The notes beneath the pieces are model-generated. The model searched no databases and had not been told where the DNA came from. It saw only the letters and a program-made list of their open reading frames with translations. The translations under genes and the position numbers were made by a program. Shown in pieces: positions 37,265 to 57,169 of a stretch of 64,000 nucleotides of DNA (the stretch's first letter is position 1; every line of letters begins with the position of its first letter). Source of the stretch: a virus (lineage: Duplodnaviria; Caudoviricetes); IMG/VR virus record IMGVR_UViG_2974703250_000001, positions 1-64,000 of that record. One strand, written 5' to 3'.

Positions 37265-38224
37265 TTGAACCGTAAGAAGATCGCGGCGTTGGTGTTGGCG
37301 GCTGCGGCCACCCTGCCGATTGTCGCGTGTTCGACTTCGGTCCCGGCTGGCATTACCGCCGTCAAGGTGGACGACTACGCGTTCGTCCCCACTGACCCGA
37401 CCGTGGAGGGCTGCATTAAGCCTGAGACGAATGAGTTCAACCCAATTGGCGGGTTCAAGGCGTACATGTACCCGGCCCGGCAGATCAGCTACGACGCGCT
37501 GGACCAGCAGGGCGCGGAGGCTCCGGCCACCGTCGTCGTGTCGAACCGCGAGGCTCCGGCTGAGCTTAAGGTGCCGGTGACGGTCACGTTCGACCTCACG
37601 CAGGATTGCGAGCTGCTTAAGCAGTTCCATCGGGACTTCGGCACGAAGTACCAGGGCTGGCTTAACGATGACGGCACGGTGTCTCAGGGCTGGAAAGACC
37701 TGCTGAACTACGTGGTCGGCCAGCCGTTGCAGAACACGTTGGTGTCGATCGCGCAGAAGTACGAGTGGCGCAAGATTTGGAACGACGAGGCCGTGCGCGT
37801 CGAGTTCCAGAACGCGCTGCGTGAGACGCTGCCTAAGGTGTCGCGGGACCGTACTAACGGTGTCGACTACTTCACCAACTTTCAGGTGACGGTGATGAAG
37901 CCGGACCCGGTAGACGCGACTCTCAAGCAGGCGATCATTGCGGAGCAGCAGGCCATCGCTCAGGCTAACGCCACTAAGGCGAAGGGTGTTGCCGATGCAG
38001 AGGCGGCGCAGGCGAAGGCTGACGCGGACGTTAAGGCTGCGGAGGCTCAGACCAAGGTGGCTGAGCAGGAGGCGCTTAAGCGTCAGGCTGAGGTGCGCGG
38101 TTATCCGAGCATTGAGGCTTACCTTGACGCGCAGGAAATCGCCGCCAAGCGTGAGGCTATCTCGCGGGGTATCAATCCGTACCCGTCGCCCATCGTCGCT
38201 GGCGTTGGTGCCACCGGGCGCTAA
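37265..38224 (+). CDS. SPFH/band-7-like lipoprotein
   Basis: Signal peptide with lipobox IVAC; VPVTVTFDL SPFH core; C-terminal AQAKADA coiled coil. Confidence 0.72.
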   Translation: MNRKKIAALVLAAAATLPIVACSTSVPAGITAVKVDDYAFVPTDPTVEGCIKPETNEFNPIGGFKAYMYPARQISYDALDQQGAEAPATVVVSNREAPAELKVPVTVTFDLTQDCELLKQFHRDFGTKYQGWLNDDGTVSQGWKDLLNYVVGQPLQNTLVSIAQKYEWRKIWNDEAVRVEFQNALRETLPKVSRDRTNGVDYFTNFQVTVMKPDPVDATLKQAIIAEQQAIAQANATKAKGVADAEAAQAKADADVKAAEAQTKVAEQEALKRQAEVRGYPSIEAYLDAQEIAAKREAISRGINPYPSPIVAGVGATGR

Positions 38225-39420: not shown

Positions 39421-40839
39421 ATGGCTACCTTTTTGCAGAGCTTGCAGTCCCAGTTCAACACCACTCGCACGGAGAACGGCGATAAGGCGCACAAGTCGTC
39501 GCTTGATCCGGTGGTGGATTACTTCGGCCTAGCGGGCGCTATGCGTGACCGCGCCGAGGCGTCGGCTGACCTGTTCGAGAAGGCGTTCCGATTCGACCCA
39601 CAGGCGGCGGTCCGGACCCTGTTCTATCTGCGTGACGTGCGCGGGGGCCAGGGCGAGCGTGACGTGTTCCGTGCGGGCCTCAAGCGGCTTCTGGCGAAGT
39701 GGCCGGGCGCTGACTACTCGGTGCTCAAGCATGTGCCGTTCTACGGGCGCTGGGACGACCTGTTCTACGACGGCGCGAACGTCACGCCCGCCGTGGCCCG
39801 GATTCTCCACTATCAGTGGGCCTCCGACGTTGCGGCGTACGAGCGTGGCGATCAGGTGTCGCTCATGGCTAAGTGGCTGCCGTCCGACAAGGCCGCTAAC
39901 AAGGAGCTGGCTATCGCGGTGCGTCAGGCGCTCGGTCTGACTCAGCGTGAGTACCGGCAGACCCTTACGGCTCTTAGGGGCCGGATTGGTCTCGTCGAGC
40001 ACGATATGTCGGAGCGCACTTACGAGCACATCGACTACTCGCGGCTCCCGGCTCAGGCGCACCGTAAGCACGTTAAGGCGTTCCGGCGCAACGACGGTGA
40101 GCGGTACCAGGCGTTCCTTGACGCGGTGCAGCGTGGCGAGGCGAAGGTGAACACGTCGACCCTGTATCCGTACGAACTGTTCGACCTGTGCCGGTCGGAC
40201 CCTTCGGCGGCTGACGCGTTGTGGAAGAACCTGCCGGACTACACGCAGCCGGGCCAGGATGCGCTAGTCCTGCCGGACGTTTCCGGTTCGATGGCGGGGC
40301 GTCCTATCTCGGTGTCGGTGTCGCTGGCGCTGTACTTCGCTGAGCGCAACACGGGTCCGTACAAGGGCTATTTCCTGTCGTTCGACACCACGCCCAAGCT
40401 GGTTCAGGTGCCGGAGTCGGGAGACTTGCAGAGCAAGTTACGGGCGATCAGTAGCCATACCAACAACTGGGGTTCGACCAACTTGCGGGCCGCGTTTACC
40501 GCGATCCTCAGGGCGGGGTTGCAGTCGGGCACCGTCCCGGCCACGCTCTACGTCGTGTCGGACATGCAGTTCGATCAGGCGCTTAACAACGCCGATCTGA
40601 GCGTGTTCGAGTCGGCCAAGCTCTCGTTCCAGCAGGCGGGCCTTGAGCTGCCGCACGTCGTGTTCTGGAACGTGAACGCGCGGCATGATCAGTTGCCCGC
40701 GACGGCTATGGACGGAAACGTGACTCTCGTTTCCGGGCTGGCTGCTACGACGTTTGCGCTGGCTGTGCAGGGTAAGTCCCCGCGTGAGCTGGTGGACGAC
40801 GTAATCAATTCGGAGCGATACGAGAAAATCGTTCTGTAA
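39421..40839 (+). CDS. Ro60/Rsr-like RNA-binding protein (TROVE plus vWA)
   Basis: RTENG, LFYLRDVRGGQGER, YGRWDDL, AKWLPS, DVSGSM MIDAS, VSDMQFD, FWNV. Confidence 0.9.
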   Translation: MATFLQSLQSQFNTTRTENGDKAHKSSLDPVVDYFGLAGAMRDRAEASADLFEKAFRFDPQAAVRTLFYLRDVRGGQGERDVFRAGLKRLLAKWPGADYSVLKHVPFYGRWDDLFYDGANVTPAVARILHYQWASDVAAYERGDQVSLMAKWLPSDKAANKELAIAVRQALGLTQREYRQTLTALRGRIGLVEHDMSERTYEHIDYSRLPAQAHRKHVKAFRRNDGERYQAFLDAVQRGEAKVNTSTLYPYELFDLCRSDPSAADALWKNLPDYTQPGQDALVLPDVSGSMAGRPISVSVSLALYFAERNTGPYKGYFLSFDTTPKLVQVPESGDLQSKLRAISSHTNNWGSTNLRAAFTAILRAGLQSGTVPATLYVVSDMQFDQALNNADLSVFESAKLSFQQAGLELPHVVFWNVNARHDQLPATAMDGNVTLVSGLAATTFALAVQGKSPRELVDDVINSERYEKIVL

Positions 40840-40882: not shown

Positions 40883-40936
40883 TGGACGCGAACAGCAATC
40901 AAAACTTCTTCTGCTAAAAGAAACCAAGTGCGTCCA
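40883..40936 (+). ncRNA. Minimal Y-RNA-like unit 1 carrying a tRNA-Ser(GCT) anticodon stem-loop
   Basis: TGGACGC/GCGTCCA terminal stem, ACAGCAA motif, TTCTT-CTGCTAA-AAGAA hairpin. Confidence 0.7.
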
Positions 40937-40948
40937 GTTTAAAACCTG

Positions 40949-41078
40949 TGGACCCCCACAGCAATAAAACTACTTCCATGATAAGGACGAGGCGCGGGTT
41001 CAAATCCCGCAGCTCTTACGGTTTTCACCGTAAGGGTTTAGCTCAGGGGCAGAGCGCGTAAGTAAAAACAGGGGTCCA
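40949..41078 (+). ncRNA. YrlA-like Y RNA (circularly permuted tRNA mimic)
   Basis: TGGACCCC/GGGGTCCA stem, ACAGCAA, T arm GCGGG-TTCAAAT-CCCGC, loop-closed acceptor 41011-41038, D arm GCTC-AGGGGCA-GAGC; adjacent to the Ro gene. Confidence 0.88.
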
Positions 41079-41092
41079 GTACATAGCGGCTG

Positions 41093-41146
41093 TGGACACT
41101 AACAGCGATTCTAACTCTTTCAAATGGTGAAAATAGAATGTGTCCA
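41093..41146 (+). ncRNA. Minimal Y-RNA-like unit 3
   Basis: TGGACAC/GTGTCCA stem, ACAGCGA motif, inner TTCTA/TAGAA stem. Confidence 0.65.
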
Positions 41147-41161
41147 GTTCCACCGCGTTTG

Positions 41162-41201
41162 ATCCGCCCCGCGCCTAAATGACTGCGGGGCGGATTTTTT
41201 T
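41162..41201 (+). terminator. Intrinsic terminator closing the Ro-Y RNA transcript
   Basis: ATCCGCCCCGCG / TGCGGGGCGGAT stem followed by a T run. Confidence 0.85.
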
Positions 41202-51556: not shown

Positions 51557-51656
51557 ACGGTTAAGTCCGGGTTTCCGGACGTTTTCGTGGGCATTGGGTA
51601 CATGCGACGTACTGTTGTGTGTACCCAACAGCCCGACGAAAGAAAGGGGGTTGAAA

Positions 51657-52595
51657 ATGACTCTGACTCTTACCGCAATGCGCGGTTATCCCGGCTCGGG
51701 GAAGTCGACTACGGCGCGCACTGTTGCTAATAACACGGGCGCGGTGGTGGTTTGTCGTGACGAGCTGCGGAACATGCTGCACGGCGTGTACTTCAACGAT
51801 GGTTCTAACCATCCTAAGTCGCCTAAGGACTTTGAGGATGAGGTAACCATTGCGGAGCGTGCGCAGGTCGCAGCCTTTCTCAAGGCTGGCGTTTCGGTAG
51901 TTGTCGACGCTACGCATTTGGAGCCGTCTTACTTGCGTAAGTGGGCGAAGATGGCCTCAATGTACGGCGCTGACTTCGTGCGGGTCGATCACATCACGCC
52001 GGTTGACGAGTGTCGTAAGCGGGACCACGCCCGGATGCTCGCTGGTGGCCGGTACGTGGGTGACAAGGTTATCGAGAAGATGGCTAAGCGTCACCCGGTG
52101 AAGAACTGGCCGGATATTCAAGCGCCACCGACGTTCACGCCGGAGCCGGTTGAGTGGGAGCCGGGCCTGCCTACGGCAATCATTGTCGATATCGACGGCA
52201 CGGTGGCGCACATGACGGGGCGTTCACCTTACGACTACAGCCAGGTCCATACCGACGTGGTTGATGAGCAGATTCGATGGCTGGTCAACACGGTTGAGTC
52301 CGAAGGCGTGTTCGTCCTGTTCGTGTCGGGCCGGGATGACGAGTGCCGGGAGGCTACTGAGAAGTGGCTTGCGGAAAACGGCATCGTCTACGACGAGCTG
52401 TACATGCGGCCTACCGGCGCTAAGGACAACCACGGGAACAAGCTGCCCGACTACCTGGTGAAGTCCGACCTGTTCGATAAGCATATTCGCGGCAAGTACA
52501 ACGTGCGGTTTGTGCTCGACGACCGGGACCAGGTTGTGAACCTGTGGCGTGCGCTGGGCCTTAAGTGCCTGCAAGTTCAGCCGGGCGACTTCTGA
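51657..52595 (+). CDS. Polynucleotide 5'-kinase/3'-phosphatase (T4 PseT-like)
   Basis: GYPGSGKST P-loop; HAD DIDGT, SGR, DDR. Confidence 0.9.
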   Translation: MTLTLTAMRGYPGSGKSTTARTVANNTGAVVVCRDELRNMLHGVYFNDGSNHPKSPKDFEDEVTIAERAQVAAFLKAGVSVVVDATHLEPSYLRKWAKMASMYGADFVRVDHITPVDECRKRDHARMLAGGRYVGDKVIEKMAKRHPVKNWPDIQAPPTFTPEPVEWEPGLPTAIIVDIDGTVAHMTGRSPYDYSQVHTDVVDEQIRWLVNTVESEGVFVLFVSGRDDECREATEKWLAENGIVYDELYMRPTGAKDNHGNKLPDYLVKSDLFDKHIRGKYNVRFVLDDRDQVVNLWRALGLKCLQVQPGDF

Positions 52596-55891: not shown

Positions 55892-57169
55892 GTGAGCTTT
55901 GATACGCCGGAGAACGTTAACTACGCGGCGACAATCGTCAAGCTGCCGCAGGGCCTTCTCCTAGAAGGTCTCGACAACCTGGTGGGCGTGCCCATGTTCG
56001 GCTACCAGGCGCTCACCCAAAAAGAAGGCTACGAGCTGGGCGCTCTGCGGGTGCTGTTCATGGCCGAAACGCAGCTCGACGCGGACTACGCGCGGGAGAA
56101 CAACCTGTTCCGCGAGGCCACGTTGAACCGGGACGCCAGCGAGACCGGCTACCTAGAGCCGAACGCCCGTGTGAAGGCGATCCGGCTGCGCAAGCACCAG
56201 TCAGACGCACTGCTGATGCCGTTGTCGTCGCTGGCCTACACCGGCTACGACGTGTCCACGCTCAAGCCGGGCGACACGTTCGACAAGCTGAACGGCCACA
56301 CGATCTGCCGCAAGTACATCCCGAAGGGTAAGAAGCAGGCCACGCAGGGCCAGCCCAAGGTGCGTAAGCAGGTCGACGAGCGTCTGTTCCCGAAGCATCT
56401 GGACACGGAGCACTTCTTCCGGAACCTGCACTACTTCCGTACGGAGCGGCGCGTTGTGGTGACGCAGAAGCTCCACGGCACGAGCTGGCGGGGCGGCAAT
56501 ATCCCAGTTAACCGGACTAAGGGCTGGTTTGAGCGGTTCATTAACTGGCTGGGCTGGTTCACCCATGACACCGAGTACAAGCACGTCTACGGCTCTCGGA
56601 ACGTCGTTAAGGGCCGCTCGGAGAATAACCACTACTACGCGTCTGATCTGTGGGCCGAGTACGGAAAGAAGCTTGAGGGGAAGATTCCCGAGAACTTCAT
56701 CATTTACGGCGAGCTGATCGGATGGGTTGATAACGACACCCCGATTCAGAAGGGCTACACGTACAACCTGCCTCCGGGCCAGTGTGAGCTTTACGTGTAC
56801 CGGGTGGCGACGGTTAACAACCAGGGTGTGATTGCGGACCTGTCGTGGGAGGGCGTTAAGGACTTCTGCGCGAGCTTGGACCTTAAGACGGTGCCGGAGT
56901 TTTACCTGGGCGTCGATCATTACCCGTTCGCGGACAATGACGATGCCGTTGTCAAGATTGCCTCTGAGGCGTACCTGGACAAGCGGTATGCCGACGAGGG
57001 GTTCCCGAACGCGGTTCCGCTGAGTGACCGCAAGACGGTTGACGAGGGTGTCTGCGTCCGTGTTGAGGGCCAGATTCCGCACGTCTTTAAGGCGAAGTCT
57101 CCGAAGTTCCTTGAGCACGAGACTAAGCAGTTTGATAAGGGAGAGGTTGACCTTGAAGCGGTGGCATAA
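55892..57169 (+). CDS. ATP-dependent RNA ligase (Rnl2/DRB0094-like)
   Basis: Motif I TQKLHG, YGELIG, DEGVCVR, KAKS; N-terminal OB-like module. Confidence 0.85.
   Translation: MSFDTPENVNYAATIVKLPQGLLLEGLDNLVGVPMFGYQALTQKEGYELGALRVLFMAETQLDADYARENNLFREATLNRDASETGYLEPNARVKAIRLRKHQSDALLMPLSSLAYTGYDVSTLKPGDTFDKLNGHTICRKYIPKGKKQATQGQPKVRKQVDERLFPKHLDTEHFFRNLHYFRTERRVVVTQKLHGTSWRGGNIPVNRTKGWFERFINWLGWFTHDTEYKHVYGSRNVVKGRSENNHYYASDLWAEYGKKLEGKIPENFIIYGELIGWVDNDTPIQKGYTYNLPPGQCELYVYRVATVNNQGVIADLSWEGVKDFCASLDLKTVPEFYLGVDHYPFADNDDAVVKIASEAYLDKRYADEGFPNAVPLSDRKTVDEGVCVRVEGQIPHVFKAKSPKFLEHETKQFDKGEVDLEAVA

Follow-up and report, generated by a model that had tools for sequence, protein, structure and literature searches.

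What is the tRNA-like RNA that lies in the middle of three small RNA-like units downstream of a Ro60-fold gene in a mycobacteriophage, and why would such an RNA carry an anticodon loop? The window analysed here, 64,000 nucleotides in length, comes from a cluster L phage (L4, Bromdenvirus-like) whose Ro-gene/RNA region is 91% identical to that of phage Chaser. A preliminary description had named the RNA the YrlA and had read it as a nearly complete tRNA-Ile(GAT)-like molecule opened between positions 26 and 27. All three units are closed by a stem and carry an ACAGC(A/G)A motif; stem and motif together we call the handle, and the middle unit, unit 2, is the subject of this study (Table 1).

The presumed protein partner is assigned by Pfam to DUF2828/DUF7788, not to TROVE, and only a fold search placed it: a PDB sequence search returned nothing, whereas Foldseek with the AlphaFold model (pLDDT 93) gave 13 matches with E < 0.001, at ranks 1-13, all of them Ro60/Rsr/TROVE structures (best 1yvr, E 4.5e-7, TM 0.59). 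Our literature search on DUF2828 found only unrelated plant and animal papers. The terminator-like hairpin that closes the array was missed by the terminator scan, probably because its loop exceeds 8 nt, and no sigma-70-like promoter was found. A GCGG/CCGC pairing (41085-41088 with 41153-41156) flanks unit 3, recurs in relatives and is possibly a processing signal. Upstream of the Ro60-fold gene lies a lipoprotein-like gene of 319 aa (37265-38224), and the equivalent position in loci L524 and L525 is taken by shorter genes matching Band_7 (SPFH).

Table 1. Positions in the window of the Ro60-fold gene, the RNA array, the parts of unit 2 and the RNA repair genes.
Feature	Position	Strand	Basis or remark
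Ro60-fold RNA-binding protein gene (DUF2828 + DUF7788, 472 aa), presumed RNA partner	39421-40839	+	Pfam, AlphaFold, Foldseek
Handle unit 1, with bare 5-bp anticodon stem-loop (GCU) at 40906-40922	40883-40936	+	Read from sequence; array survey
Handle unit 2 (tRNA-like RNA of interest, middle of three; 130 nt)	40949-41078	+	Sequence, folding, relatives
Unit 2: handle 5' strand and ACAGCAA motif (40958-40964)	40949-40964	+	8-bp stem, 40949-40956 with 41071-41078
Unit 2: YUAY linker (40970-40973) and U; may pair with 41061-41064	40970-40974	+	YUAY motif per Chen 2014
Unit 2: lower anticodon arm, pairs 29-41, 30-40, 31-39 and 7-nt loop (40978-40984)	40975-40987	+	Pair probabilities, register test
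Unit 2: tRNA positions 42-43 (upper anticodon stem), paired to 41058 and 41057	40988-40989	+	Covariation
Unit 2: 4-nt variable loop (40990-40993; C48 = 40993), then T arm (40994-41010)	40990-41010	+	
Unit 2: sealed acceptor-like stem, 12 bp, TTTC loop (41023-41026), no CCA	41011-41038	+	Folding
Unit 2: U8-A9, D arm, G26 (41056), positions 27-28 (41057-41058)	41039-41058	+	D arm and U8-A9 = 41039-41056
Handle unit 3 (short; canonical anticodon loop absent in window phage)	41093-41146	+	Sequence, folding, array survey
Intrinsic-terminator-like hairpin and T run closing the array	41162-41201	+	Read directly from sequence
Polynucleotide kinase-phosphatase (Pnk) and RNA ligase genes (tRNA repair pair)	51594-52595 and 55892-57169		

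All the elements that had been listed for unit 2 (handle, anticodon hairpin, variable AGGC, T arm, TTTC-closed acceptor without CCA, D arm) are present in the sequence, as are the tRNA tertiary bases U8, A14, G15:C48, G18, G19, U54, U55, C56 and A58 together with YUAY, and the whole unit folds better than its own shuffles (z = -3.3). The handle stem differs in sequence among units and phages with its pairing preserved, the acceptor-like stem is identical to one in a Mycolicibacterium sphagni prophage, and the linker helix averages 3.3 bp family-wide against 2.9 in the null, a weak excess. The pairs of the lower anticodon arm have probabilities of 0.86-0.94 in ViennaRNA, and its loop holds A32, U33, the anticodon GAU (40980-40982), A37 and A38. 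The hairpin, earlier put at 40974-40990, is present at 40973-40989, one base off; its reading as a 5-bp arm, CTTCC-ATGATAA-GGACG, did not hold, with a mismatch at U28-C42 and with C40973 being the last base of the conserved YUAY motif. On the strength of sequence comparison, unit 2 is very probably a complete tRNA-shaped mimic with a split anticodon stem, a sealed acceptor and an elbow, and it probably has no part in decoding.

We parsed every unit made of handle, T arm, closed acceptor and D arm in about 290 fetched loci, which yielded 109 units of less than 85% identity; none of our conclusions depends on the unpublished genome G149. A 7-nt loop closed by three Watson-Crick pairs at the exact tRNA register was found in 34 of the 109, compared with 1-6 at shifted registers. 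Among these 34, which were selected by structure only, U33 occurred in 33, A38 in 32, and U33 together with R37 in 31 (Fisher p 1e-8 versus stemless units; the surveyed sequences share ancestry, so that this and the other p values overstate independence). Across 59 mimic loops, G37 accompanied G36 in 9/10 units versus 1/49 otherwise, and 38 were the exact loops of real tRNAs. The mimics differ from real tRNAs in an excess of A32 (13/59 versus 17/1687), which possibly affects cleavage, in an enrichment of U36 (20/34 versus 334/1030, p 0.0025), and in having no CAU loops (0 versus 63/1030). Anticodon loops with U36-A37-A38 are substrates for t6A, and tRNA-fMet is a classic VapC target. Of shuffled sequences, 0.23% had a stem of 3 bp together with U33 and R37 in tRNA register, and 0.008% when both cross pairs described below were required as well.

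The loop is absent from 56 of the 109 units. At the level of whole arrays, 20 of 28 related arrays carried at least one canonical anticodon hairpin in whichever unit (3.0 expected); when the long unit is without a hairpin the short unit often has one, and the hairpin shifts from unit to unit. In the window phage and in relatives L006, L013, L014, L345 and L521, short handle units carry it as a bare anticodon stem-loop of 5 bp (GCU, GGU, GUU, UCU), and loops of 8 nt, with one extra A, were seen in unit 2 of L009 and L082 (Crossroads-type phages, M. sphagni prophage). The hairpin of unit 2 is also present in Chaser, Bromden, CELFI and the L2 phages, and it recurs in dozens of unrelated phages. 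The anticodon loop of unit 2 is a true tRNA-type loop, authentic, conserved and covarying, and the earlier claim that an anticodon arm had been retained was upheld; published YrlA models do not describe such a loop.

The point at which the tRNA is opened could be read from covariation. In 39/41 loop-bearing units (shuffle mean 18.1) the base after G26 was paired with position 43, and in 36/41 (shuffle mean 11.9) the second base after G26 was paired with position 42, four pair types being seen at each of the two sites; pairs 30-40 and 31-39 defined this 41-unit class and were not counted as tests in it. By comparison, the cis pair 27-43 of the earlier fold was found in 10/41 (shuffle mean 7.2, p 0.12). 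The cis pair 28-42 occurred in 16/41 (p 0.006) and a third cross pair in 18/41, so that strand exchange by one base is possible. With both handle classes pooled, both cross pairs were present in 41 of 50 strict units and both cis pairs in 4 of 50. In the window C40988 pairs with G41058 and G40989 with C41057, bases that follow the D arm, which places the opening at 28/29 and not, as had been proposed, between 26 and 27. The native path therefore runs intact through the D arm, 26, 27 and 28, and the handle exits between 28 and 29.

ARAGORN called no tRNA in the native-order sequence and, once the sequence was un-permuted at 28/29, called tRNA-Ile(GAT) with all five anticodon-stem pairs Watson-Crick; joined at 26/27, the stem contains a U-C mismatch at 28-42, and the 28/29-joined cloverleaf is 5.8 kcal/mol the more stable of the two. 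In single-sequence ViennaRNA folding, which ignores tRNA tertiary core contacts in its nearest-neighbour model, a lone hairpin or the earlier fold beat the split fold by about 2.5 kcal/mol (about 5 kcal/mol with an extra linker helix), and the cross pairs had a pair probability of 0.002.

Whether the mimic is a tRNA-Ile is a separate matter, for which we compared it with 55 tRNAs of M. sphagni and its prophage and with the 14 tRNAs of the phage itself. At positions 29-41 unit 2 agreed with host tRNA-Thr(GGU) in 12/13 bases, the unusual A32 among them, and with tRNA-Ile in 10/13; the hairpin is one base away from host tRNA-Thr(GGU), and the best whole-body match of unit 2 was tRNA-Val(GAC). The CTT resemblance to tRNA-Ile is due to the family-wide YUAY-U linker. 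The anticodon also varies within cluster L, being GAU in Chaser, Bromden and CELFI, GGU in Zakai, Lewan, Vetrix and Wigglewiggle, and GUU in Gardann, Faith1 and Archie, and in Douge, L1 and L3 the counterpart of unit 2 has no loop and instead pairs 4-5 bases across. A 3-bp chassis that is the same or nearly so holds the anticodon GCU in Gordonia phage Neville, GGU in L391, GUU in L186 and GUC in L522. An origin from tRNA-Ile(GAT), proposed in the preliminary description, was accordingly rejected. Un-permuted at 28/29, the RNA does share with tRNA-Ile(GAU) the anticodon with U33, A37 and A38 in a 5-bp arm; it lacks the free CCA acceptor end, the native cloverleaf order, an Ile-like body and a conserved anticodon.

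These comparisons bear on the suggestion that unit 2 is a working permuted tRNA-Ile gene, whose transcript would lose its handle by excision, be joined from 28 to 29 and have its acceptor opened, in the manner of algal permuted tRNAs. The ARAGORN call with its perfect 5-bp stem and the presence of a ligase in the phage are what such a gene would lead one to expect, but no bulge-helix-bulge was seen at the junction by inspection, the body has no Ile identity, the anticodon is not conserved, and an ordinary tRNA-Ile(GAT) is already encoded by the phage (genome position 65336). We know of no splicing endonuclease of the permuted-tRNA type in bacteria, and we consider this explanation highly improbable.

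Family-wide, no match to the amino acid of the anticodon was detected in the D, T, V or anticodon stem parts (p 0.28, 0.12, 0.81 and 0.35). The acceptor stems carried a weak anticodon-matched signal (profile test p 0.0045, positions 3:70 and 73) that falls far below that of real tRNAs (about -2.6 versus +3.5), and the discriminator base matched the anticodon by a simple rule in 17/41 units versus 13.9 expected (p 0.14). CCA stood at 74-76 in 3/41 units. One acceptor stem was found with different anticodons in Bromden and Crossroads, and likewise in CELFI and Zakai; acceptor stems recombine independently of anticodons. The acceptor of unit 2 has A73, the same as tRNA-Ile, and G4-U69, where E. 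coli tRNA-Ile has C4-G69.

One might propose a processed, chargeable RNA, which after cleavage of its acceptor loop by RNase P and addition of CCA would be charged by a synthetase; it would then tie up that synthetase or EF-Tu, or now and then take part in decoding. The matched acceptor signal and A73 agree with that proposal, and the YrlA of M. smegmatis is Rsr-bound, cut by RNase P and given CCA in vivo (PMC4201824). Against it stand the distance of the signal from that of real tRNAs, the rarity of CCA, the sharing of one acceptor stem between anticodons, the G4-U69 pair, and the 12-bp stem, which, judged by the 7-bp rule of Chen, RNase P should cut poorly. Taken together, these points make charging quite unlikely.

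A second class of RNAs with TROVE-type handles was found in phages and Mycobacteriales genomes, of which 19/38 had the hairpin at tRNA register; in the TROVE-linked RNAs the cross pairs of 43 and 42 occurred in 20/23 and 19/23 and the cis pairs in 7/23 and 6/23, in a set contaminated by a few real tRNAs. One case is Gordonia phage Neville (L346:1150-1330; also Trax and Rabbitrun), in which near-identical tRNA-like cargo is joined to another handle, next to a classical Ro60 gene that Pfam assigns to TROVE, and from which it follows that the cargo moves between two Ro families. Neville-type RNAs have been annotated as small hypothetical proteins. Farther afield, permuted tRNA mimics that carry no annotation lie in Xylella phage Usme (L400:1000-1600; a 43-kb phage) and related Xanthomonas phages; there are three of them, of which two have an anticodon hairpin (CUC and GUU), and a hypothetical gene of 439 aa lies downstream.

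That the loop is a vestige, left from recently captured tRNA genes and with no function of its own, might be thought from the half of units that lack it and from the 8-nt loops in Crossroads and the M. sphagni prophage. A relic would hardly have lost the isotype identity of its body and kept the loop rules, however, and the excess of A32 and the recurrence of one hairpin on handles of two unrelated types and beside Ro proteins of two families also speak against a vestige, which we judge very unlikely.

A loop under tRNA rules, a diversifying anticodon, a generic body and a hairpin in whichever unit fit the display of anticodon loops as such, and the displayed loops would most simply be bait for tRNA-targeting defences. 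The comparison supports an L-shaped mimic in which the T arm, sealed acceptor and D arm make the elbow. Its 5-bp anticodon stem has two segments, of which the D-arm side supplies pairs 27-43 and 28-42 and the 5' side supplies 29-31 with 39-41; the handle branches from this stem between 28 and 29. By analogy with Y RNAs, the Ro60-fold ring may bind the ACAGCAA handle, protect the ends and display the elbow and the anticodon loop, and a ring at this position should hinder ribosome entry. The RNA would then serve as a decoy or sponge that cannot be charged, its loop being exchanged when the threat changes, and its likeliest targets would be host proteins that read anticodon loops in infection, such as anticodon nucleases, toxins and tRNA-sensing defences. 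Mycobacteria carry many tRNases that target tRNAs (PMC10264068), and the Pnk, RNA ligase and 14 tRNAs of the phage (a cluster starting at genome position 63804) also count in favour of such a role; the many units without the loop, its absence from Douge, L1 and L3, the absence of CAU loops and the ViennaRNA preference count against it. We place the probability of a Ro-scaffolded decoy for anticodon-recognising defences at roughly 0.45.

The same genes can be read differently, with the tRNA-like domain as a tether or adaptor. As in RYPER, it would bring to the Ro ring an effector of RNA repair or decay, which might be the Pnk or the RNA ligase of the phage, the PNPase of the host or an enzyme that modifies tRNAs, and the loop would be a docking site and not a bait. 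Known Y RNAs link Ro to PNPase, Pnk and ligase are encoded by the window phage, and the enriched U36-A37-A38 loops are compatible with docking of a modification enzyme. In phage LeBron, the Ro-like gp53, Pnk and ligase are each toxic when overexpressed alone (PMC13148394). A fixed partner would nevertheless favour a constant loop, whereas the anticodon varies in near-identical phages and moves between units, and we regard a tether as rather unlikely.

The anticodon loop matters for a longer-standing problem, as the role of the YrlA tRNA-like domain has awaited an explanation since 2014 and YrlA as published has no anticodon. Chen 2014 assigned a fourth stem-loop upstream of the T arm as the variable arm, with YUAY at the start of the V-loop (PMC4201824), and Wang 2018 described a YrlA without an anticodon loop, treating the hairpin as a class II variable loop (bioRxiv 10.1101/312249); the Rfam YrlA consensus has no such hairpin. 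We found no paper that reassigns this arm as an anticodon loop, some reviews that may mention it lying beyond the coverage of our search. The methods primer of Chen 2014 for M. smegmatis YrlA contains, at the same register, a stem, the tRNA-Arg(UCU) loop CTTCTAA, a stem, two bases, a variable loop and the start of the T arm, so that the validated YrlA appears to carry the hairpin; a search of 401 sampled genomes did not turn up the yrlA locus of M. smegmatis. More tentatively, a sizeable group of Y RNAs from phages and bacteria, M. smegmatis YrlA included, could be full tRNA mimics with the handle at 28/29 and swappable loops that serve as counter-defence baits on Ro60 rings. Once the 'variable arm' is read as an anticodon loop carried by a split stem, the partners to seek become anticodon nucleases, synthetases and t6A/m1G37 modification enzymes, and natural variation at position 35 among lab-ready cluster L phages (GAU, GGU, GUU) makes a one-base comparison possible. 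The reassignment also explains the GenBank tRNA-Thr and tRNA-Asn entries that overlap the counterpart RNA in Zakai (L004:1870-1940), Gardann (L005:470-540) and Wilder, which are probably a handle, anticodon hairpin and T arm misannotated as tRNAs.

Among known systems, the putative Y RNAs of Listeria phage CKA15 (PMC12282133) and the Ro60-Yrl of Thermus phage phiLo (PMC12135203) likewise join a Ro60-like protein to neighbouring non-coding RNAs; the non-coding region beside the Rsr-like gene of CKA15 is highly transcribed and the phiLo RNA is bound in vitro, according to the parts of these papers available to us, which describe no tRNA-like or anticodon structure of the kind seen in unit 2. Algal and archaeal permuted tRNA genes also place the 3' half before the 5' half with the acceptor initially a closed loop (per Wang 2018), but a splicing endonuclease turns them into working tRNAs, whereas unit 2 has no isotype identity. 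The label YrlA was only partly borne out. Unit 2 has the T arm, closed acceptor stem and D arm in that order and starts 110 nt downstream of the Ro60-fold gene on the same strand, well within 4 kb, but ACAGCAA replaces the Rsr-binding motif GNCGAAN0-1G, the partner is DUF2828 and not TROVE, and unit 2 scores 20.1 bits against RF02553, over model positions 30-81 only, versus a gathering threshold of 69 bits. A scan of 10 kb against Rfam gave no match and a local one sub-threshold matches only, and examples of the TROVE-type RNAs also fall below the RF02553 cut-off (41-44 bits). Because the motif and score tests fail, we do not file unit 2 in RF02553, although it may well work like a YrlA. YrlA (RF02553; PMC4201824; bioRxiv 10.1101/312249, PDB 6CU1) resembles unit 2 in having T before D, a sealed acceptor, the elbow bases, the Levitt pair G15:C48, the YUAY linker, a Ro60-fold neighbour on the same strand and tandem Y-like RNAs, the M. 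smegmatis RNA differing in its processed 7-bp acceptor; what sets unit 2 apart is the ACAGCAA handle, the DUF2828 partner and the anticodon loop on its split stem.
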